A stretch of 9,616 nt of DNA, from the IMG/VR virus record IMGVR_UViG_2778261570_000015; one strand, written 5' to 3'. This document shows, one piece after another, positions 1-9,616 of this stretch. The position numbers and the translations under genes are program-made. The notes under the pieces were generated by a model, which was not told where the DNA came from, did no database searches, and worked only from the letters and a program-made list of their open reading frames with translations. The stretch's first letter is position 1. Each line of letters begins with the position of its first letter. This stretch comes from a virus. Lineage: Duplodnaviria; Heunggongvirae; Uroviricota; Caudoviricetes.

Positions 1-294
<294 letters not shown>

Positions 295-600
295 CCGTCC
301 AGAAGAAGATATTTTCACTGGCTGGTATGTCGCCAAAATCCAGCAATATGACAGCAAAGTCTGGCATTAATACAGCAGATACAAGCAAAGTTTATCATTT
401 TCTGGTGGTAGGAGCGGATGCCTTAACTATGTCAGAAATTACGGTCGATGGTGTTAGCGTTGAGAAGGTCGGCGGCTGCGCCAGAGAATTTCTGGTCGTA
501 GATGGCTTTCTCTGCTCGCGTAGTGACTCCACAAAAACCTTCGTCCACACGCGCGACGTTAACGAAATGAGCGCGATGTATTGTGCATCTGGTGCTTCCA

Positions 601-628
601 ATAGTGAGTTTTCGGAGTCCATAAAAAA
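601..628 (+). repeat. Direct repeat copy 1 (AGTTTT-NN-GAGTCCATAAAAAA); partner at 6481-6504
   Basis: 14-nt exact match GAGTCCATAAAAAA at 615-628 and 6491-6504, extended to 20/22 identity by AGTTTT at 607-612 and 6483-6488. Confidence 0.6.
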
Positions 629-725
629 GAGCTTGCCGTTATGCGGCAACACGGTTTATGGTTATAAGGCACCTCATAAAACGGGTGCCGGGTTTCGCAG
701 CCCGGAAATGTACGAGGCGACACAT

Positions 726-747
726 GACGCGCCGAGCGTCTTTTTTT
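726..747 (+). terminator. Weak intrinsic terminator candidate (5-bp GC-rich stem, 5-nt loop, T7 tract)
   Basis: GACGC (726-730) pairs with GCGTC (736-740), followed by TTTTTTT (741-747). Short stem, so marginal. Confidence 0.35.
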
Positions 748-754
748 GTGCCGT

Positions 755-800
755 TAGCCAGACTCACACTTTTTTCAGTGATGCGGTTATAATCCGCGTC
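755..800 (+). promoter_or_regulatory. Sigma70-type promoter candidate for the primase operon; -10 TATAAT at 788-793 flanked by a GCGG/CCGC inverted repeat
   Basis: Perfect TATAAT hexamer at 788-793; the -35 region is poor (CACACT-like). GCGG (783-786) and CCGC (794-797) embrace the -10, an operator-like arrangement. First SD-bearing start codon downstream is at 950. Confidence 0.35.
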
Positions 801-949
801 GCTTGCAAAATTATGGTGGGCTGGACAGGGCAGCCGAAAGGCTGGCCGGTTTCCTTGTACGCCGGTACTGCGAACTCTGTTCAGTCCACCACCAGCGAGT
901 TTCGCAGCTCCGGTGGTGGGAAGAATTCCCAGTACAAGGAGGCTGCCAC

Positions 950-1144
950 ATGCTGGCTACTACCCCTACCCAAAAACCGCAATTTATCTGGATTATCGCC
1001 GCAGTTCGCCGCGATTGCCCGACAATTACCGCCAAAATTCATCATATTGCTGCCGAGTCTGAACGCGATGCTCGCCGTTCTCTGGTGCGCGATCACATCT
1101 GCTTTTTTGCTGGTCGTATCCGCATGGAGGTGGCACATGATTAA
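950..1144 (+). CDS. Hypothetical small protein, 64 aa (first gene of primase operon)
   Basis: ATG 950 preceded by AAGGAGG (936-942, spacing 7). Codons in this frame are enterobacterial-preferred (CGC/CGT, CTG, ACC, ATC); the alternative long frame here has CTA/TTA/AGG/ATA and about 6% Trp. Stop overlaps the next start. Confidence 0.55.
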   Translation: MLATTPTQKPQFIWIIAAVRRDCPTITAKIHHIAAESERDARRSLVRDHICFFAGRIRMEVAHD

Positions 1145-1355
1145 AACCTACGATGTGCATATGGATCCCCTCGAACGCACAAGCCAGATCATCACACTGA
1201 CAGAAGTGATTAACGACATTCTGGTGAGCAACTCTCCCTCACGAGACGAAAGACTGAAGGCGTTACTCGCGATATTGGATCTCGCCGTTCGTGACGTTCA
1301 TTTCCTGCTGGAAGGTGGACAAATGCCATGCAAAACGGGGGCAACCAATGAATAA
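1137..1355 (+). CDS. Hypothetical small protein, 72 aa
   Basis: ATG 1137 preceded by GGAGG (1126-1130); overlaps the previous stop (ATGATTAA). Same frame as the 288-1355 track ORF, of which it is probably the only real part. Confidence 0.55.
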   Translation: MIKTYDVHMDPLERTSQIITLTEVINDILVSNSPSRDERLKALLAILDLAVRDVHFLLEGGQMPCKTGATNE

Positions 1356-1542
1356 CTCAATTAATACCCCTCGCCTTACGTCCGCACTTCAATTAATCGA
1401 GCAAGCAGCGGCTGTCCTGGTTGCTGTCAGTCTTTCGGCTGAAGAAATGGACGCTGCTGATGTCGTGGATGCGATTAAAGCGTGCTCATCTTTGGTTAAC
1501 GATGCCCGTGCCGAGCTGGTAATTCTTGGGGGTGAAAAATGA
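1348..1542 (+). CDS. Hypothetical small protein, 64 aa (MNNSINTPRL...)
   Basis: ATG 1348 overlaps the previous stop at 1353-1355; GGGGG at 1336-1340 serves as SD. The track ORF 1291-1542 starts from an earlier in-frame ATG without an SD. Confidence 0.5.
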   Translation: MNNSINTPRLTSALQLIEQAAAVLVAVSLSAEEMDAADVVDAIKACSSLVNDARAELVILGGEK

Positions 1543-1802
1543 ATATCAACTTAATTTATCGTCATCCGTGTGAGCTGGAAATTGAATCATTGCTGGGGCG
1601 CGAAGAGCCATATCCAGACACATTCACTCCCGCAGATTGCGCGACTGAACGGCTTACCAGAGCGCGCACAGGTCTGGTTCATGTGATGAATGAGATTGTT
1701 CCCTCGGTGGGAGGGGAACAGGCGACAGTAATCAATAGCTGGCTACAAAAAGTTACCTCCCTGATAGATATCGGTTTAATCGATGTGGAGAGTGCGAAAT
1801 GA
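1539..1802 (+). CDS. Hypothetical small protein, 87 aa
   Basis: ATG 1539 overlaps the previous stop (ATGA); GGGGGTG upstream. Track ORF. Confidence 0.6.
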   Translation: MNINLIYRHPCELEIESLLGREEPYPDTFTPADCATERLTRARTGLVHVMNEIVPSVGGEQATVINSWLQKVTSLIDIGLIDVESAK

Positions 1803-2020
1803 CCAACATCCAGCTCATTGAAGCGCAATGTCGCATCGAACAGGTTCAGACTGTTTTAGGGTTCTGGCTTGAAGGGGCCAGCCCCAGCAACAGAGACAAG
1901 TTAATGATTGGCGCGGTTATGTCACTGCTCAATGGCGTACCAGAAGCTATTCAGGAAGCGGACGAATTGTTGGGCAAATATGAGTTACAGAATCATTCAG
2001 GCGAGGCGAAACATGAATAA
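1799..2020 (+). CDS. Hypothetical small protein, 73 aa
   Basis: ATG 1799 overlaps the previous stop (ATGA); GGAGAG upstream. Track ORF. Confidence 0.6.
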   Translation: MTNIQLIEAQCRIEQVQTVLGFWLEGASPSNRDKLMIGAVMSLLNGVPEAIQEADELLGKYELQNHSGEAKHE

Positions 2021-2615
2021 TTTCTTAACTTTCCATGCAGAAGCAACGCCTGACGGCGTAAACATCATGTACCGCAGCAACGATGGCATGACAGAACGCG
2101 TTGAGACCGTCTCATATATTGATGCCGTAAATCGTCTGGATGCCGGGGATTATGACGATAAACCAGATGAAGGCATGTTTATACATCTCGCTATTGCCAG
2201 TGGCGGCAACCAGGGATATTTCGATTACACATCACAGCATCACGTGATTATGTGGCGCTGGCTGATAGCAACAGCATTCATGCTGGAAATGAGAGAGGAA
2301 AACGGCACTGTCAGCATCATTGATGATACTGGCAATCCTTCCGAAGTGGCTGTTTATTCCAACGACATCGTCGCCATGCCGCTGTATCCAGTAGCAGAGC
2401 GCCTCGCTATGGCAAACAACATTGAGGGCGCGATGATAGAACGTTTTGGCATCGAGTCTGGCACAGAACGCGCCATCATTTTCTACAGAGCCATGATGGA
2501 TGTGGAACAAGGAGCACTGACTCCATTTGGTCGTGAAACGCTTGCTGAACTTCACAACAGCTTTATAGCTGAACTGAATGAAAACGGCATGCCAGCGGAA
2601 CCAGTGACGCACTGA
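2013..2615 (+). CDS. Hypothetical protein, 200 aa (MNNFLTFHAE...)
   Basis: ATG 2013 overlaps the previous stop at 2018-2020 with GAGG upstream. The track ORF 1908-2615 begins at an earlier ATG inside the preceding gene; the coupled start at 2013 is more plausible. Confidence 0.6.
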   Translation: MNNFLTFHAEATPDGVNIMYRSNDGMTERVETVSYIDAVNRLDAGDYDDKPDEGMFIHLAIASGGNQGYFDYTSQHHVIMWRWLIATAFMLEMREENGTVSIIDDTGNPSEVAVYSNDIVAMPLYPVAERLAMANNIEGAMIERFGIESGTERAIIFYRAMMDVEQGALTPFGRETLAELHNSFIAELNENGMPAEPVTH

Positions 2616-2625
2616 GGATGGAGCC

Positions 2626-2967
2626 ATGATTACTAAAAATTTCCGACTGAATGCGCTGGCAAATAAGTATGCGTCAGCACTGTATAACCACATTACCTCC
2701 ACCAGCGGCGGGGACTATTTCATGATTGATGCGGACGGAGAGGCCGTCCGTGTGGAAATCGTCAATGGAGTAAAAGGCGTTCGCAGCCTGATCGATAGTT
2801 ACGCACTGGCAGCCATGAAAGTGTTCTACCCGCAGTGGGAAACCGTGGGGATCGAGCTTCTTGATCGTTGCGTCACTAAGGACAGATTGACTGACGTCGG
2901 GCGTGAGATATGGCAAAGCATGGTTAATGACATGGGCGCAACTGTAGCGGGAGGTTCTCATGCGTGA
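2626..2967 (+). CDS. Hypothetical protein, 113 aa
   Basis: ATG 2626 with GAGGATGGAG upstream; 10-nt gap after the previous stop. Track ORF. Confidence 0.65.
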   Translation: MITKNFRLNALANKYASALYNHITSTSGGDYFMIDADGEAVRVEIVNGVKGVRSLIDSYALAAMKVFYPQWETVGIELLDRCVTKDRLTDVGREIWQSMVNDMGATVAGGSHA

Positions 2968-3331
2968 AAATGTAGAAATGGCGCTTAGCTCCGCAATCGG
3001 AGAGCAGGTGGCAAAGATTGCTGGTGCTGTGTGGATTCATAACCTTCATTCTACTGGTGAAGAGAAAATGGCAATTCAGACGCCAGAGGGACGCACCATT
3101 ACTACATCTCTGAAGCCGTCAGATGTTTGTGATCTGATTTGCGCATTCATGTACCCAGCAATGAGGACTGTCCACGGCGATAAGTGGAAACTTGCGACAA
3201 CCGCTGAATTTGATATGTGGCTAAACAATGATGGCATGCTGACTGATTACGGAATAACCAAGTGGCAGATGCTAGTTAGCCATATCGCAAACGCTATAGA
3301 CCACGTGGGGTACGGTGATGCGAAACATTGA
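2960..3331 (+). CDS. Hypothetical protein, 123 aa
   Basis: ATG 2960 overlaps the previous stop; GGGAGG upstream. Track ORF. Its 3' end overlaps the primase start by 14 nt. Confidence 0.65.
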   Translation: MRENVEMALSSAIGEQVAKIAGAVWIHNLHSTGEEKMAIQTPEGRTITTSLKPSDVCDLICAFMYPAMRTVHGDKWKLATTAEFDMWLNNDGMLTDYGITKWQMLVSHIANAIDHVGYGDAKH

Positions 3332-6074
3332 TCTTATCCGTCAGGTTATCAGTGCGTCTGAAAACAACTGGCCTCATGTGCTGGGCTGCCTGAACATAAA
3401 TGTCCCTGACTCTCCGCGCCGTCATGCTCCCTGCCCTGCATGTGGGGGCAAAGATCGATTCCGGTTCGATGACAACGGGCGCGGTAGCTTCATCTGTAAT
3501 CAGTGCGGCGCTGGTGATGGGCTGGATTTAATTAAACGCGTAAATAACTGCGACACAACAGAGGCGGCGCTTCTTGCCGCTGATGTTCTGGGTATTGATT
3601 ACCGGACAACGGAAACACCAGAAGCCACCAGCCAGAAACGGGAACAACTGGAAACCGAGCGCCAGCGACGCGAACAGGAGCGCCTGAAAAGGGCAGAGAA
3701 GGACGAACAACAAAGACGGGATACGTTTTCCCGTCAGTTTGATGACATGCGCAGAAAGGCTGTAAACGGCAAATCTGATTATCTGGTTGCGAAAGGGGTA
3801 GGTGATTTTACATTCCCCGTGTTGCCCGATGGATCTCTGTTGCTGGCGCTGGTGGATAAATCCGGCGCAGTAACAGCAGCACAGACTATTACCTCACATG
3901 GTGAAAAAAGACTCCTGACAGGTTCAGCAAAGCGAGGGGCATATCACGCCATAAACGCACCAGAAACAACACAGAGCATCTTAATCGCAGAAGGGCTGGC
4001 AACGGCATTATCTGCCCATTTAATGCGTCCAGAGGCGCTGACAGTGGCGGCGATTGATGCCGGGAACCTGTTATATGTCGCCCAGGTACTGCGGGATAAA
4101 TTTCCTTCAGCACAAATCATCATTGCTGCGGATAACGACCACAGCGAAGGAAGACAAAACACGGGGAGAATAGCAGCAGAAAAAGCAGCTTTATCTGTTT
4201 CTGGATGGGTGGCATTACCCCCGACAGATCACAAAGCAGACTGGAATGATTACCACCAAAAACACGGTATTAAATGCGCCACAGAAGCGTTCAATAAGTC
4301 AATGTACCAACCACAGGGTAATGGCGTGAAACAGGAGCCACAGACCATTGAGGGAAGCGATTTTAAGGTTATGGATACCGATCCACTGAAACCAAGAATA
4401 GAAAGCCGCGAGGATGGTATTTATTGGGTATCTCCGAGAGCTGACAGCCAGAGTGGAGAAATCATCAATAACGAAAGCTGGTTATGTTCTCCGTTAAGCG
4501 TTATCGGTACTGGCAGAGACGATAAAGACCAGTATCTCATTCTTCGCTGGCTGTCGTTTGGTTCTGAAACGCCGACAACCGCTGCCATTCCACTGGCTGA
4601 TATTGGTGAACGTGAAGGATGGCGCACACTTAAAGCTGGTGGGGTAAATGTCACGACCAAAAGCAGCCTCAGAGCAATACTGGCAGACTGGCTACAACGC
4701 AGTGGCTCTCGTGAATTGTGGCGTGTTGCTCATGCCACTGGCTGGCAATGCGGAGCGTACATCATGCCTGATGGGGAAATCATCGGAACACCTGAAAATC
4801 CTGTGCTGTTCAGCGGGAGAAGCTCAGCCGCAGCCGGATATACCGTCTCAGGGAGCGCGAAAAGCTGGCGTGATAACGTGGCGCGTCTGGCCTTTGGTAA
4901 CTATTCAATGATGACCGGGATCGGCGCAGCACTGGCAGCGCCATTGATTGGGCTGGTGGGCGCTGACGGGTTCGGCATTCATTTCTATGAGCAGTCGAGC
5001 GCAGGTAAGACCACCACGGCAAACGTGGCGAGCAGCTTATACGGCAACCCTGATTTACTGCGGCTGACGTGGTACGGAACCGCGCTGGGGCTGGCAAATG
5101 AGGCCGCCGCCCACAATGACGGACTAATGCCGCTTGATGAAGTTGGTCAGGGCGCTGATCCTGTCAGCGTTTCACAGTCTGCCTATGCGTTATTTAACGG
5201 TGTAGGGAAACTGCAAGGCGCTAAAGATGGTGGAAACCGGGATCTAAAACGCTGGCGTACAGTGGCAATCAGCACCGGAGAAATGGATTTAGAAACATTT
5301 ATCGCTACTTCCGGGCGAAAAACCAAAGCCGGGCAACTGGTGCGACTGCTGAATATTCCGTTGAGTAAAGCAGTACGCTTTCACGATTACCAGAACGGAA
5401 AACAGCACGCAGACGCACTGAAAGACGCTTACCAGCATCACCACGGCGCGTCCGGGCGTGAGTGGATTAAATGGCTGGCAGACCACCAGCAACAGGCTAT
5501 TAAAACCGTTCGTGACTGCGAAAGCAGATGGAGAAGCCTGATCCCATCCGATTATGGTGAGCAGGTTCACCGTGTAGCCGCGCGATTTGCCATTCTGGAG
5601 GCCGCATTGTTGTTAGGCGAGGTTGTAACAGGCTGGGATGCTCAGACATGCCGTGATGCGATACAGCACAGCTATAACGCATGGTTGCGCGAGTTCGGCA
5701 CAGGTAACAAAGAGCATCAGCAGATTATTGAACAAACGGAGGCATTTCTTAATGCCTATGGGCTTAGCCGTTTTGCACCATTTCCATACAGCCCGGCAGA
5801 TTTGCCCATCAAAGATTTAGCCGGATACCGTCAGCGTGGAGAACATGACGAAAGCCCAATGATTTTCTACACATTCCCGGCCACATTTGAAAAGGAGATC
5901 GCATGTGGTTTCAACGCAAAACAGTTTGCTGAAGTGTTGAAAAAAGCCGGGATGCTAACCCCACCAAACAGCGGTCGTGGATACCAAAGAAAATCACCAC
6001 GTATTCAGGGACGACAAATAAACGTTTATGTACTCAATTACCAGCCAGGAGATTATAACTCATCTGAAGAATGA
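3318..6074 (+). CDS. DNA primase-helicase (replication initiator), about 918 aa: N-terminal zinc ribbon, TOPRIM primase core, P-loop NTPase domain (phage P4 alpha-like / DUF927-like architecture)
   Basis: Zinc ribbon CPACGGKDRFRFDD...CNQCG (about 3420-3524). TOPRIM signatures IAEG and AADNDHSEGR (about 3972-4244). Walker A-like SSAGKTT and Walker B-like LMPLDEVGQ (about 4980-5150). Start ATG 3318 (GGGG at 3307-3310); the track's GTG 3315 is too close to the SD. Confidence 0.9.
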   Translation: MRNIDLIRQVISASENNWPHVLGCLNINVPDSPRRHAPCPACGGKDRFRFDDNGRGSFICNQCGAGDGLDLIKRVNNCDTTEAALLAADVLGIDYRTTETPEATSQKREQLETERQRREQERLKRAEKDEQQRRDTFSRQFDDMRRKAVNGKSDYLVAKGVGDFTFPVLPDGSLLLALVDKSGAVTAAQTITSHGEKRLLTGSAKRGAYHAINAPETTQSILIAEGLATALSAHLMRPEALTVAAIDAGNLLYVAQVLRDKFPSAQIIIAADNDHSEGRQNTGRIAAEKAALSVSGWVALPPTDHKADWNDYHQKHGIKCATEAFNKSMYQPQGNGVKQEPQTIEGSDFKVMDTDPLKPRIESREDGIYWVSPRADSQSGEIINNESWLCSPLSVIGTGRDDKDQYLILRWLSFGSETPTTAAIPLADIGEREGWRTLKAGGVNVTTKSSLRAILADWLQRSGSRELWRVAHATGWQCGAYIMPDGEIIGTPENPVLFSGRSSAAAGYTVSGSAKSWRDNVARLAFGNYSMMTGIGAALAAPLIGLVGADGFGIHFYEQSSAGKTTTANVASSLYGNPDLLRLTWYGTALGLANEAAAHNDGLMPLDEVGQGADPVSVSQSAYALFNGVGKLQGAKDGGNRDLKRWRTVAISTGEMDLETFIATSGRKTKAGQLVRLLNIPLSKAVRFHDYQNGKQHADALKDAYQHHHGASGREWIKWLADHQQQAIKTVRDCESRWRSLIPSDYGEQVHRVAARFAILEAALLLGEVVTGWDAQTCRDAIQHSYNAWLREFGTGNKEHQQIIEQTEAFLNAYGLSRFAPFPYSPADLPIKDLAGYRQRGEHDESPMIFYTFPATFEKEIACGFNAKQFAEVLKKAGMLTPPNSGRGYQRKSPRIQGRQINVYVLNYQPGDYNSSEE

Positions 6075-6097
6075 GCTTCTTCATGTGCGTAGAAAAG

Positions 6098-6126
6098 GTG
6101 TTGGTTCAGTTGGTTCAGTTGGTTCA
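6098..6126 (+). repeat. Three tandem direct iterons GTTGGTTCA (first copy extended to GTGTTGGTTCA)
   Basis: Copies at 6098-6108, 6109-6117 and 6118-6126, read directly from the sequence. Confidence 0.7.
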
Positions 6127-6168
6127 ATTTGTAAAGAGTATTGTTTTATAAGGATTTTATTCTTTTTA

Positions 6169-6212
6169 TTGAACCAACACTGAACCAACAACACGGTATT
6201 TTGAACCAACAC
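6169..6212 (+). repeat. Three inverted-orientation iterons TGAACCAAC(AC), reverse complement of the upstream iterons
   Basis: Copies at 6169-6180, 6180-6191 and 6201-6212; centre spacing about 11 and 20-21 bp, roughly one and two helical turns. Confidence 0.7.
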
Positions 6213-6260
6213 AATGTGACTGAATTGATGCGCACAACACCTGGCTGGCATCAGAGAGTG

Positions 6261-6281
6261 TTTTACGAGACTTTCGTAAAA
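6261..6281 (+). promoter_or_regulatory. Palindromic operator-like site O1: TTTTACGA-N5-TCGTAAAA (core TACGA-N5-TCGTA)
   Basis: 8-bp perfect inverted arms at 6261-6268 and 6274-6281. Confidence 0.45.
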
Positions 6282-6318
6282 TCCTGTGTACAAGGGCGTG
6301 ACGTTTTTGAAAGTGAGC

Positions 6319-6337
6319 ACTACGAAATTTTCGTAGT
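6319..6337 (+). promoter_or_regulatory. Palindromic operator-like site O2: ACTACGAAA-T-TTTCGTAGT (core TACGA-N5-TCGTA)
   Basis: 9-bp perfect inverted arms at 6319-6327 and 6329-6337; same core and spacing as O1, 57 bp downstream. Confidence 0.45.
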
Positions 6338-6480
6338 TCAGAAAACAGCCTCTGAGAAGTTGTTATGCCTGTTCAGCAAACCATCCGCATAGCTGATCGC
6401 GAATCAAATTACCAATGGAGCCAGAAGCAAGGGCAGAACTGAAAAGCGCCTGCCGTGAAGAGTAATGCGACACCATAAAT

Positions 6481-6504
6481 ATAGTTTTTAGAGTCCATAA
6501 AAAA
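6481..6504 (+). repeat. Direct repeat copy 2 (AGTTTT-NN-GAGTCCATAAAAAA)
   Basis: See copy 1; lies 27 bp upstream of the 6531-6564 terminator. Confidence 0.6.
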
Positions 6505-6530
6505 CCTGTCAAAACCTGACACACAGAACG

Positions 6531-6564
6531 ATGCCACCAGCTACTGAGCGGTGGCATTTTTTTG
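6531..6564 (+). terminator. Rho-independent terminator, + strand
   Basis: ATGCCACC (6531-6538) pairs with GGTGGCAT (6550-6557), 11-nt loop, then TTTTTTT (6558-6564). No T-tract on the opposite strand, so unidirectional. Confidence 0.65.
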
Positions 6565-6584
6565 TGCTATTTGTTTCATATTTT

Positions 6585-6632
6585 GCAATTACGATGATGA
6601 ATATTGCGATTTGTGAAACTATAATAACTGTT
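6585..6632 (+). promoter_or_regulatory. Promoter candidate for the downstream operon; -10 TATAAT at 6620-6625
   Basis: Perfect TATAAT 34 bp upstream of the SD of the 6659 ORF; weak -35 (ATGAAT, 17-bp spacer); AT-rich upstream region. Confidence 0.4.
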
Positions 6633-6658
6633 GTTTTATACAGTTCTAAGGGGGCGTT

Positions 6659-6820
6659 ATGGCTATTTCAGTAAAGCCGGTATTGATAAGTGAGAAGCAA
6701 ATGGAAGCGATAAAGAAAATTCAGGAAGAGCAGCGTAAAAAATCAGGAATTGGAGTAGCGCCAACTCTGCATGAAATTGCACGAGGGTTAATAGATAAGG
6801 CGCTGGCAGGCTGTATGTGA
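6659..6820 (+). CDS. Small 53-aa protein, possible ribbon-helix-helix (CopG/Arc/MetJ-like) DNA-binding regulator; absent from the ORF track
   Basis: ATG 6659 preceded by AAGGGGG (6648-6654); stop TGA 6818-6820. Translation MAISVKPVLISEKQMEAIKKIQEEQRKKSGIGVAPTLHEIARGLIDKALAGCM has a short N-terminal beta-strand-like segment followed by two predicted helices. Next gene starts 16 nt downstream. Confidence 0.5.
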   Translation: MAISVKPVLISEKQMEAIKKIQEEQRKKSGIGVAPTLHEIARGLIDKALAGCM

Positions 6821-6836
6821 AAATGGATGGCATCGC

Positions 6837-7298
6837 ATGGAACTAAAATTTATTGATAACCCTGTGCGATTACAGGCCTTTCTTAACGAGCCAGGCAATA
6901 CCGAAAATATTGTTGAGCCGGGGCACACGTACTACATCAAGCCTGATGCGGTATATCTCGGCATCTACGAAGGATTAGTGCTGGCTGGCGTTCATGAAGT
7001 GCGTAACTTCTGGCATAGCGTTGTTGAATGCCATGCGGTGTACGACCCCGGATTCCGTGGTGAATATGCACTGCAAGGACATCGATTATTCTGCAAATGG
7101 CTTCTCGAAAACTCACCATTCCTTAACAGCATCACTATGGTTCCTGACACCACGAAATACGGACGGGCAATTATCCGTTTGCTTGGCGCTACCCGTGTTG
7201 GTCACCTTGATGATGCTTATATCAGATGTGGTAAACCCGTCGGCGTAACGCTTTATCAGTTAACTCGGCAACAATATAAGGAATTCAGCGAATGTTAA
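6837..7298 (+). CDS. Hypothetical protein, 153 aa
   Basis: Track ORF; ATG 6837 with GGATGG upstream; stop overlaps the next start. No family recognised. Confidence 0.7.
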   Translation: MELKFIDNPVRLQAFLNEPGNTENIVEPGHTYYIKPDAVYLGIYEGLVLAGVHEVRNFWHSVVECHAVYDPGFRGEYALQGHRLFCKWLLENSPFLNSITMVPDTTKYGRAIIRLLGATRVGHLDDAYIRCGKPVGVTLYQLTRQQYKEFSEC

Positions 7299-7969
7299 TT
7301 ACCCATATAGCTCATAAACATCTCAATCGTGCCGTATACGAAAAAGGCGGTGATGGTGGTGCCTCTAAAGCTCAGGCGAAGGCCCAGCAGCAGGCAATTG
7401 ATTTGCAGCGCGAGCAGTGGAATACGGTGATGAATAATCTCAAGCCGTATGCAGAAGTCGGATTGCCTGCTTTACAACAACTACAAGGACTGATGACTCT
7501 GGAAGGGCAGAATAAAGCCGCGAATGATTTCTTTGGTTCTGGTTTATATAAAACACAGGCAGATCAGGCCCGTTATCAGAACCTTGTCTCAGCAGAAGCT
7601 ACCGGGGGGCTTGGCTCAACAGCTACCAGTAACCAGTTATCTTCCATTGCGCCCATGCTTTATAACAATTGGCTTAGTGGGCAAATGCAAAATTATGGAA
7701 ACCTGCTAAATGTCGGGATGAATGCGGCATCAGGGCAGGCAACGGCAGGGCAAAACTACGCCAATAATACCGGACAACTCTTGCAGGGGCTTGGCGCTAT
7801 TCGTGCAGGTCAGGCGCAGCAGCCATCCAGTCTTGCGCGTGGTATTGGTGGGGCAGCATCAGGCGCTTTAGCGGGTGCGCAACTTGGTTCCGTTGTTCCT
7901 GGAATAGGAACTGCGGCCGGCGCTATTGGTGGTGGGCTTATTGGTCTTGTTGGGGGGCTTGGATTCTAA
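7292..7969 (+). CDS. Ala/Gln/Gly-rich protein, 225 aa, with a glycine-zipper hydrophobic C-terminus; putative internal-virion/ejection-type protein
   Basis: Track ORF; start overlaps the previous stop; AAGGAA upstream. Low-complexity AQ-rich N-terminal part; C-terminus GIGTAAGAIGGGLIGLVGGLGF. Composition resembles podovirus internal core proteins; not verified by homology. Confidence 0.65.
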   Translation: MLITHIAHKHLNRAVYEKGGDGGASKAQAKAQQQAIDLQREQWNTVMNNLKPYAEVGLPALQQLQGLMTLEGQNKAANDFFGSGLYKTQADQARYQNLVSAEATGGLGSTATSNQLSSIAPMLYNNWLSGQMQNYGNLLNVGMNAASGQATAGQNYANNTGQLLQGLGAIRAGQAQQPSSLARGIGGAASGALAGAQLGSVVPGIGTAAGAIGGGLIGLVGGLGF

Positions 7970-9288
7970 TGGCGACATGGCAACTTGGCGGGCTGCCTAG
8001 CATGGCACCGCAAAATGATAATGCTCCTCGTTCTTCCGTTCCTCAGCCTGTGCAGTATCAGCAGCAGCCAAACGTAGGTTTAATGGCGCTACAGGGGCTA
8101 AGAGGCGTTGCTGAGATTAATCAGCAGGCGCAAATTTCCCAGCAGCTAAAAGAATATCAGGCACGGTTGGGTAGTGCGGTAGCTAATAATGATCGTGTTG
8201 GCGTGCAGAAGTTAATGGCCCAGTATCCCCAGTTTATGGCTGATTCTCAAAAACAGATGGGATTCATTGATGCTGAGCAAAATCGGCAGACCGCTGACGC
8301 TGCCATGAATCTGCGTCTTGCGTCACAAACTGGAGATCCACTGACCATGCAGAAGGCCATTCAGCAGGCAAATCCAGTATTACAGCGATTTGGTCTTCCT
8401 GCTGAAGAGGTTTATCAGTCTTGGCAGAATGACCCACAGGAATTCAACAGAATCACTGACCTCATCCACCTCCATGCTGATCCAAATAGTTACTTTAGTG
8501 TTCAAGAGAAGCAGCAAGGGCAGAGTATTGCACAGCAGAACGCAGATACATCTGCATATAATGCTCAGGTTAATGCGGAGCAGGGTAATCGGCGGCTCGA
8601 TATGGAGCAGTTCAAAGTCCTATCCGATAACCAACTACGCACGAGAGAAATGGTTCTGAAAGCACGACTTGGACGTGCTCAAAATGACATCGAGAGAGAC
8701 AAGCTCAATGCTGAACTGAGCAAGGTACAGCAGGCGAAAGTGGAGAAGATGAACGATAAAATTAATACTGTTGCAGGTAATATCGACTCCTTGAACTCTG
8801 CGCTTGAAGTGGGTCATGAACTGGCGGGAATTGTAGGGAAACATCCTTCGGCCGTTACCCGTTCGCAGAACTATAACCCCCTGACGCTGGGGTTTGGATT
8901 CCTCCCTGATGTAGCAGAAGACACACGAAGCCTACGCGCCAAAGCTGATGAATACAACCTAAAGGTTATTCTGCCTAGCCTAAAAGGTACTTTTGGCTCT
9001 AACCCAACCGAAGGGGAAAGGGCTGCCCTTATGCAATCTCAAAATGGCATTAAGTCAGCAACCAGCAATGAGGCATTTTTGCGAGAGTTGAATAAAGCGC
9101 AGGACGTAATTATTCGAATGCAGAAACGACAGATTGCCGGGCTCGGTATTCCTGTAACCAAATCTAAGGACGAAGAAACTGATACCAAAATGCTGTTGCA
9201 GGATCCTTCACTGGTTAAGGATTATGTGACCGCACATGGCTATCTGCCGGAAAGTTACTATCAGGCAAAACTTAAGGGATGGCAATGA
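7969..9288 (+). CDS. Gln/Ala-rich protein, 439 aa; putative internal-virion/ejection-type protein
   Basis: Track ORF; TAATG overlap with the previous gene and TGA overlap with the next. Q/A-rich, coiled-coil-like composition. Confidence 0.7.
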   Translation: MATWQLGGLPSMAPQNDNAPRSSVPQPVQYQQQPNVGLMALQGLRGVAEINQQAQISQQLKEYQARLGSAVANNDRVGVQKLMAQYPQFMADSQKQMGFIDAEQNRQTADAAMNLRLASQTGDPLTMQKAIQQANPVLQRFGLPAEEVYQSWQNDPQEFNRITDLIHLHADPNSYFSVQEKQQGQSIAQQNADTSAYNAQVNAEQGNRRLDMEQFKVLSDNQLRTREMVLKARLGRAQNDIERDKLNAELSKVQQAKVEKMNDKINTVAGNIDSLNSALEVGHELAGIVGKHPSAVTRSQNYNPLTLGFGFLPDVAEDTRSLRAKADEYNLKVILPSLKGTFGSNPTEGERAALMQSQNGIKSATSNEAFLRELNKAQDVIIRMQKRQIAGLGIPVTKSKDEETDTKMLLQDPSLVKDYVTAHGYLPESYYQAKLKGWQ

Positions 9289-9616
9289 TGGCACAACTGA
9301 CAGAAAAACAGAAAGCCTATTCCCGTCATCTCGATGAAAAATATGGTTTCCCATCAGGGACGATGGAAACATTAGTTGGCAATGAATCTAGTGGTAACGG
9401 AAGTGCCGAGTCACCGAAAGGAGCTAGAGGATTTGCTCAACTGATGCCCTCAGTAATGAGTGATGCTGGTTATCGTGGAACAGATCCGCGCTCACTGCCA
9501 TTTGAAAAGCAAATGGATATCGCAGCAAACCATCTCAATAAAGGAATGAAGCGATTTGGTGTGAACCGCCCCGGGTTTCCTGGAGAGTGTTTTATCTGTG
9601 AACTCAGGCTGCCAGA
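9285..9616 (+). CDS. Lytic transglycosylase (SLT) domain protein, N-terminal fragment; gene continues beyond the window
   Basis: ATG 9285 with AAGGGATGG upstream, overlapping the previous stop. Translation contains GNESSGNGSAESPKGARGFAQLMP, matching the SLT catalytic signature (ES...A.S..GA.G..Q), at the same N-terminal position as in T7 gp16-type internal virion protein D. Open to the end of the window. Confidence 0.7.
   Translation, partial: MMAQLTEKQKAYSRHLDEKYGFPSGTMETLVGNESSGNGSAESPKGARGFAQLMPSVMSDAGYRGTDPRSLPFEKQMDIAANHLNKGMKRFGVNRPGFPGECFICELRLP

Follow-up and report, generated by a model that had tools for sequence, protein, structure and literature searches.

An 'Ash family' reading frame in an EcCIMP1-type satellite is probably a frame-shifted counterpart of P4 eta, open across an immunity RNA switch

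EcCIMP1-type satellites of Escherichia coli carry an open reading frame (ORF) of 355 codons that is annotated as an 'Ash family' gene and that is probably not an ordinary protein gene. The ORF was analysed in a stretch of viral DNA of 9,616 nucleotides (nt; IMG/VR record IMGVR_UViG_2778261570_000015), referred to below as the window, where it occupies positions 288-1355 of the plus strand, starts with the ATG at 288 and corresponds to RefSeq WP_000958750.1 in locus L005. Positions 55-9561 of the window are 98.7% identical, over 9,517 nt, to EcCIMP1, which contains the same ORF in an identical ORF architecture. EcCIMP1 is a characterised 20-kb phage-inducible chromosomal island, or satellite, of E. 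coli MP1 (PMC11773190). By analogy with satellite P4, we consider it likely that the ORF is the EcCIMP1-type counterpart of P4 eta, that is, a frame kept open so that ribosomes can travel across an RNA switch. The frame starts 5' of a putative internal promoter and then crosses this promoter, a SeqA/isrK-type RNA with its terminator, a C4 antisense RNA, a C4 target at the ribosome-binding site of icd, a gene of the Icd/Kil cell-division inhibitor family, and, finally, icd itself. What is new in the window is a frame-shifted version of the eta/kil arrangement of P4, in which a difference of 1 nt puts the long ORF out of the icd frame.

The internal promoter is a putative constitutive one, similar to PLE, located inside the ORF at 633-662 (+). 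It consists of TTGCCG (633-638), an 18-nt spacer and TATGGT (657-662), with a predicted transcription start at ~669. The candidate hexamers align with promoter-like hexamers found 5' of isrK/seqA in P4 and D6, and the region varied in 0 of 36 columns among nine E. coli sequences and in 1 of 36 among 29 unique sequences; a generic promoter scan did not list the TTGCCG-18-TATGGT combination. The −35 hexamer is overlapped by a palindrome, TTGCCGTTATGCGGCAA, at 633-649. On the minus strand a T-run comes after this palindrome, giving it a terminator score, and a similar GCC...GGC symmetry is present in the same place in P4.

Two RNA families were recognised downstream of this promoter. The segment 669-746 (+) matched the isrK, or P4 SeqA-type, RNA (Rfam RF01394, 69 bits, threshold 50), and a terminator scan placed an intrinsic terminator at its end (stem 726-740 plus T-run). 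The C4 antisense RNA, homologous to the CI RNA of P4, follows at 809-896 (+; RF01695, 81 bits, threshold 45). Its two recognition segments, a' (852-860, TCCTTGTAC) and b' (868-874, CTGCGAA), have one target each on either side, all on the plus strand. The upstream targets, identified within isrK by complementarity and covariation, are b1 (694-700, TTCGCAG) and a1 (710-717); the downstream targets are b2/seqC (901-907, TTCGCAG) and a2 (932-940, GTACAAGGA). Segment a' pairs with the isrK site and with 932-940, and b' with 694-700 and 901-907. Target a2 overlaps the icd Shine-Dalgarno sequence, AAGGAGG, at 936-942.

Both recognition segments co-vary with both sets of targets across four immunity cassette types, and compensatory double changes were found in 17 of the 28 predicted pairs of the C4 structure in 36 diverse sequences, with few pairs broken. 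Judged by this covariation, the RNAs are real and functional in immunity. The cassette itself (~693-937), which spans part of isrK and the spacer together with C4 and its downstream targets, has been exchanged among E. coli relatives that are otherwise 97-99% identical; its borders are sharp, about 50% of its columns are variable and it occurs in at least three to four specificity types. The idea of a further, degenerate isrK-C4 module at 418-650 was rejected, as the alignment puts the conserved block at 667-971 and contains no duplicate. An earlier reading of this DNA, made from the sequence only, had envisaged, as one of three options, a largely non-coding, hairpin-rich leader of roughly 650 nt; its extent is ~280 nt (669-949), covering the two Rfam RNAs and their targets.

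The conservation of the open frame was evaluated in two sets of loci. The first set comprised 40 enterobacterial genomes with both RNAs, found via the Ash peptide. Every P4-like locus of this set with an icd of 62-66 amino acids (aa) was open in the same C4 phase, from 5' of isrK through C4, and the open frame was also present in loci of Klebsiella, Raoultella, Leclercia, Buttiauxella and Xenorhabdus. The P1-like phage D6 had the same RNAs and no long open frame across them. Because this set had been found through the Ash peptide, a second set was retrieved through Icd alone, with a narrower Icd alignment that covers one Icd clade only. One frame was stop-free over the 285-nt leader in 65 of the 66 unique loci thus retrieved (66 of 67 with the window included), the remaining two frames having a mean of 3.8 stops. 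Clustering of these leaders gave 13 groups at 85% identity and 29 at 95%.

The long frame reached the end of icd in 64 of the 65 open-leader loci, and the start codon overlapped the stop of an upstream ORF in 38 of 61 loci. All eight E. coli relatives were open despite their different cassettes, encoding 355 aa or, after an in-frame 39-nt deletion, 342 aa, and the length of the ORF ranged from 329 to 355 aa across several genera. In the window, as the sequence-only reading had correctly noted, the ORF is open and coupled at its start to the preceding gene: its ATG (288-290) overlaps the TAA stop (292-294) of a DUF4222 gene in the sequence ATGCTAA, and is preceded by GGAGG at 276-280. The DUF4222 gene (112-294, +; Pfam PF13973, E = 2e-24; PGAP, or Prokaryotic Genome Annotation Pipeline, coordinates from L001/L005) had a ratio of nonsynonymous to synonymous polymorphism (pN/pS) of 0.18. 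The long ORF is thus coupled to an upstream alpA-antA-DUF4222 operon.

The peptide encoded across the RNAs showed no comparable conservation. Over 669-949, the ORF frame had a pN/pS of 0.93, compared with 0.79 and 0.96 for the remaining frames, and variable sites in C4 were distributed as 15/12/16 over the three codon positions. There is no protein-level selection over the RNA stretch, and the constraint observed in the middle of the ORF is that of the RNA, the promoter and icd. The 5' part of the ORF ('AshN', 288-632, +) is hypervariable, has indels between genera and gave no Pfam match. Its coding signal was weak and its pN/pS values were ambiguous (0.51 in the ORF frame, 0.56 and 0.53 in the two others), with variable sites distributed as 19/7/18 by codon position. 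Taken together, the compared sequences indicate that openness of the frame is conserved, and not the encoded peptide, with selection acting on translatability.

The Pfam family on which the annotation is based can be read in the same way. The Phage_ASH profile (PF10554) matched residues 124-232 (99 bits, threshold 26), corresponding to nt 657-983, which is exactly the stretch containing both RNAs and the icd ribosome-binding site. Since this stretch has the pN/pS of 0.93 given above, PF10554 represents a reading frame and no protein domain that has been demonstrated.

The region downstream of the leader contains two further genes. The first one, icd (950-1144, +; 64 aa), lies in frame +2 relative to the long ORF, with its ATG at 950 preceded by the Shine-Dalgarno sequence that a2 overlaps. 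A profile match (NCBIfam NF033153, 70 bits, threshold 25, E = 1e-19) assigns its predicted product to the Icd/Kil family of cell-division inhibitors, and this product aligns with P4 Kil at 43% identity. The long ORF therefore traverses 950-1136 as the +1 reading of icd, for ~62 residues. The preference for the icd frame at 950-1137, already noticed from the AAGGAGG and the codons, was borne out: codon-usage log-odds were +0.25 in the icd frame versus −0.20 in the 288 frame, whose peptide is rich in Leu (13 of 62 residues), Ala (8), Pro (6) and Trp (4). Comparison of the icd frame among the E. coli relatives was uninformative, with just four variable sites.

The second gene, orf72 (1137-1355, +; 72 aa), has a GGAGG at 1126-1130 and an ATG that overlaps the end of icd; it shares the frame of the long ORF, of which it forms the C-terminus. 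Its pN/pS was 0.35 in its own frame versus 5.4 and 1.0 in the others, and it is found without fusion to the leader ORF in two loci (L061 and L078) despite the same icd-orf72 junction. The last 72 codons are an independent gene. In three frame-shifted loci (L010, L021 and L022) the long frame stops just after icd, and therefore the fusion to orf72 is incidental. As the long frame crosses icd out of frame and enters orf72 in frame, the annotated 355-aa 'protein' is composite: the discrete products are most likely the two RNAs, Icd and Orf72, and a full-length polypeptide, if there is any, is most likely a by-product or a fusion form of Orf72. The description of the ORF as a chimera in the sequence-only reading thus holds for the annotation, with a coding icd frame, an RNA leader and a separate orf72. 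It does not hold for two of the explanations offered with it, a lost stop and chance openness, the latter being contradicted by the single stop-free frame of the Icd-retrieved leaders. A dual-frame overlap, the third option, came closest, although the evidence favours selection on translatability and not on an encoded protein.

The position of the long frame relative to icd depends on the spacer that precedes it, which differs from the P4 arrangement by 1 nt (GGAGGCTGCCAC versus GGAGGCTGCCGCT before the ATG). In the Icd-retrieved set, the open frame was in phase with icd, as in P4, in 42 of 66 loci and in the +1 frame, as in the window, in 22; in none was it in +2 only. The +1 frame of icd was stop-free in all nine frame-shifted loci of the genome set versus 1 of 27 in-frame loci, and in 14 of 15 versus 9 of 41 unique icd sequences of the Icd-retrieved set (Fisher p = 2e-6, uncorrected for shared ancestry). 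The typical difference is IWII versus IWLI, where the TTA codon of the in-frame loci makes a TAA in the +1 frame.

A working model for such a frame is available from P4. According to the account of Forti et al. (1999) given in PMC10111431, a constitutive promoter lies inside eta, the transcript ends early via CI-seqA interactions and is processed to the CI RNA, and Kil is translated only upon read-through. The same account has the complete eta frame translated solely on transcripts of the upstream late promoter, in coupling with the alpA homologue, and this translation prevents termination (PMC10111431). It is also the source for suppression of Rho-dependent termination (timm) in P4. By extension, in the repressed state of the island the internal promoter would yield the SeqA and C4 RNAs; C4 would pair with the icd ribosome-binding site, icd would remain untranslated and transcription would stop early. 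Upon induction, transcripts from the promoter of the AlpA operon would be translated through the entire leader, and we propose that the leader-translating ribosomes would override the terminator, the C4 pairing and Rho, so that the downstream replication genes would be expressed. In contrast to P4, the icd spacer is shorter by 1 nt and puts the long frame in icd +1; this frame therefore crosses icd without making Icd and enters orf72 in frame.

The 5' part of the ORF contains a trace of another phage gene. A relic of a P22-type small-terminase gene (gene 3) of 111 nt lies antisense to the ORF at 436-546 (−), with 87% identity to gene 3 of P22 and 93.7% to three phage contigs (L144, L148 and L149) that encode full gp3. 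Its minus-strand translation matches gp3 residues and then runs into stop codons, in a frame that differs from that of a minus-strand ORF at 395-652; the latter was rejected as a real gene, as it has no Pfam match and no gp3 similarity. Inside the relic, a 22-mer at 521-542 (−; reverse complement GAAGGTTTTTGTGGAGTCACTA) corresponds by homology of position to the pac site annotated in P22 (BK000583 4-25), and the same 22-mer is found in EcCIMP1. The three phage contigs have it unchanged, and P22 shares 16 of its 22 positions. Among 43 loci, the 22-mer was exact in 30 (27 satellites and the three phage contigs), differed by one change in 10 and by one change and a 1-nt deletion in a single locus, the P22 form being present in P22 and L140. 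It is nearly invariant in the satellites with the relic and was less variable than the remainder of the relic fragment.

From this pattern, it is plausible that 521-542 is a candidate packaging site of EcCIMP1-type islands, copied from a P22-like helper other than Kapi1. EcCIMP1 is mobilised by Kapi1, a P22-related phage, although its packaging mechanism is described as unclear and transduction by Kapi1 as very inefficient (PMC11773190). As a source of the gp3 fragment Kapi1 was rejected, for it contains no match to the fragment or to the 22-mer and has an unrelated small terminase. Elsewhere in the window, the region of a DUF2824 gene (6837-7426) shows 81% DNA identity to the phrog_651 gene of Kapi1 (L153 27948-28536), and the island has P22-like ejection-protein genes too.

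Several observations weigh against an eta-like role of the ORF. D6 has working RNAs without any such ORF, and both the translation of the frame and its role in anti-termination would be transferred from P4, whose long frame is in phase with kil. The pN/pS of 0.51 in the 5' part leaves room for a weakly constrained peptide. Two Icd-retrieved loci are exceptions, L082 with a stop inside icd and L067 with no open frame. The +1 frame also stays open in 17% of synonymous recodings of Icd; with this level of chance openness for any single sequence, the argument rests on the association across loci, and as the compared loci are related, both the counts and the Fisher test overstate their independence. 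Finally, the frame shift may have survived only in ancestors with a +1 frame that was open beforehand (P = 0.17; 9 of 41 in-frame loci). Under either history the constraint would be the same, namely that the long frame has to extend to the end of icd or beyond.

Some of these points would also suit an annotation artefact, in which translation of the frame never exceeds noise, function resides in the RNAs, icd and orf72 alone, and openness is due to descent or is a side effect of the RNAs. The pN/pS of about 1 over the RNA stretch, the same phase inside C4 itself being stop-free even in D6, which has no long ORF, the 0.17 chance openness of the +1 frame and the changing PGAP calls, a full ORF in some genomes and a pseudogene plus Icd in others, are all compatible with it. 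We nevertheless regard it as an unlikely account, because openness is found in 65 of 66 Icd-retrieved loci spread over 13-29 leader clusters, including the variable spacer and swapped cassettes; moreover, indels are in frame, start codons show coupling to the preceding genes, the occurrence of stops in the +1 frame of icd follows the frame taken by the long ORF, and translation of P4 eta has been reported (PMC10111431). The opposite view, a genuine multi-domain regulatory protein ('Ash'/Bro-network) whose sequence is functional throughout and in which the RNAs are merely embedded, could draw on the match to a curated Pfam family, a length of 329-355 aa conserved in several genera, the grouping of Phage_ASH with Bro-network domains (PMC10111431) and fusions to AntA or terminase domains (P0002, P0013 and P0096). 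Such a protein appears improbable, given that the Pfam domain falls on the two RNAs plus a ribosome-binding site and lacks any contrast between synonymous and nonsynonymous change, that ~62 residues are the +1 reading of icd, and that the 5' part is hypervariable with indels and derives in part from an antisense terminase relic.

A recent accident, by which a gene at 288 lost its stop or was frameshifted into its neighbours, is most improbable of all. A single nucleotide in the icd spacer does separate the long frame from the in-frame arrangement of P4, but no homologue ends before the RNAs, and the frame-shifted form recurs in at least five junction/Icd types, in several genera and in about one third of the Icd-retrieved loci. 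The lost stop suggested in the sequence-only reading fails likewise, as no relative ends near 750-800 and the E. coli relatives are all of 355 or 342 aa. A further and rather doubtful possibility, which we put forward tentatively, goes beyond the eta-like frame and treats the ORF as a layered control hub, with ribosome transit as its sole 'product'. The 1-nt shift would then be adaptive, overriding the switch and Rho without producing the toxic Icd sequence, occluding the icd start and delivering an Orf72 fusion, and the antisense strand would hold the pac site of the satellite, copied from gene 3 of its natural P22-like helper. If true, this would explain the packaging of EcCIMP1-type islands and their poor transduction by the laboratory helper Kapi1 with its unrelated small terminase. 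The preferred reading remains that of an eta-like frame kept open for ribosome transit.

These results bear on genome annotation. RefSeq treats the locus inconsistently: some genomes have a full 355-aa 'ash family protein', and others have a truncated 'ash' pseudogene plus Icd, with 1145-1347 unannotated. PGAP omits the 72-aa gene wherever 'ash' is called a pseudogene (for instance, L001 9091-9293), so that pipelines calling a pseudogene plus Icd lose orf72. An 'Ash family protein' (PF10554) is annotated in thousands of enterobacterial genomes, and here the name denotes a frame over the SeqA and CI RNAs, not epsilon. PF10554 has been used as the epsilon/Ash profile in a survey of P4-like satellites (PMC8628076). 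In our searches, the Phage_ASH profile matched the P4 eta ORF (L002 8168-8812, −) over seqA, CI and the start of kil; it gave no match to P4 epsilon (L002 7888-8175, −), which belongs to PF25738. The in-frame and frame-shifted loci constitute a natural experiment, suggesting that an ORF can be conserved for its translatability and not for its content.

An eta-like ORF over the CI and SeqA RNAs is of a kind already known, having been known in P4 since 1999 (Forti et al. 1999, as reported in PMC10111431), and PMC10111431 already connects Phage_ASH with eta, C4 and isrK. The conserved genes of EcCIMP1 listed in PMC11773190 include an 'Ash family protein', and the words antisense, sRNA, Rfam and 'pac site' are absent from the text of that paper. 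The present analysis adds to EcCIMP1 a predicted RNA immunity switch, a putative anti-termination device and a candidate pac site, none of which is in its published description. Within the literature searchable here, the out-of-frame variant, the comparative evidence that openness alone is conserved, and the presence of these features in EcCIMP1 appear to be undescribed.

Other features of the window were noted as well. EcCIMP1 is located at tRNA-Thr beside proA, as are loci related to the window, and both ends of the window (1-54 and 9562-9616) are foreign to EcCIMP1. The 3' end (TGAACCGCCCCGGGTTTCCTGGAGAG...) resembles what we take to be a terminal repeat of the IS3 family (IS629/IS1203-type); if so, the element may have been truncated by insertion sequences, or the contig may end in repeats. 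Directly 3' of the primase gene (3315-6074), three direct GTTGGTTCA repeats (6100-6126) face three inverted copies of TGAACCAAC (6170-6210), separated by an AT-rich spacer (6098-6212 overall). From its sequence this array looks like an iteron-type replication origin. Weak Rfam matches to microRNA and snoRNA families at 6099-6190, a region that contains these iteron-like repeats, and at 1531-1593 were rejected as chance. The Rfam int-alpA motif (RF02996) recurs 5' of the alpA-type operon in 13 loci of related islands (L006, L007, L013, L015, L017, L018, L025-L027, L029, L030, L034 and L042), possibly as a marker of the promoter region from which the long ORF is supplied.

The closest known system is P4. 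The order of putative promoter, isrK/SeqA, C4/CI, target at the ribosome-binding site of the first gene, and Kil/Icd gene of 64-65 aa is the same, and in P4 a long ORF likewise starts 5' of the internal promoter and has the same phase relative to C4. On the minus strand of P4, isrK is found at 8692-8615 (60.8 bits) and C4, which is the CI RNA, at 8507-8420; an ORF of 214 codons (8812-8168) reads through both RNAs, with the 65-aa kil nested in its frame. P4 eta ends at the kil stop, whereas the ORF of the window is +1 relative to icd and extends a further 211 nt to the orf72 stop (1355 instead of 1144). The 5' part of the window ORF is longer than that of eta, unrelated to it and holds the terminase-gene relic, and SeqA and CI are separated by 62 nt in the window and by 107 nt in P4.

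The design of C4 and its targets is that of P1 c4 and of P4 seqA/seqB/seqC. The immI region of P1/P7 (c4, a1/b1, a2/b2, icd and ant) likewise has two C4 recognition segments that pair with one target on either side, and there too the downstream target covers the icd ribosome-binding site. In P1-type loci an antirepressor gene follows icd, whereas in the window icd is followed by orf72, small ORFs and replication genes, and antA lies upstream of the leader. D6, a P1-like phage, shows the same isrK-C4-icd order as the window but has no long ORF over the RNAs. In the IsrK-orf45-anrP locus of Gifsy-1 in Salmonella, the same isrK motif is found at the 5' end of the transcript, with an additional processed RNA downstream. 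IsrK has been described as a structural homologue of P4 SeqA (PMC4825925). In Gifsy-1 the short IsrK RNA acts in trans to activate translation of the long transcript (PMC4825925), and the genes downstream are other than those of the window.

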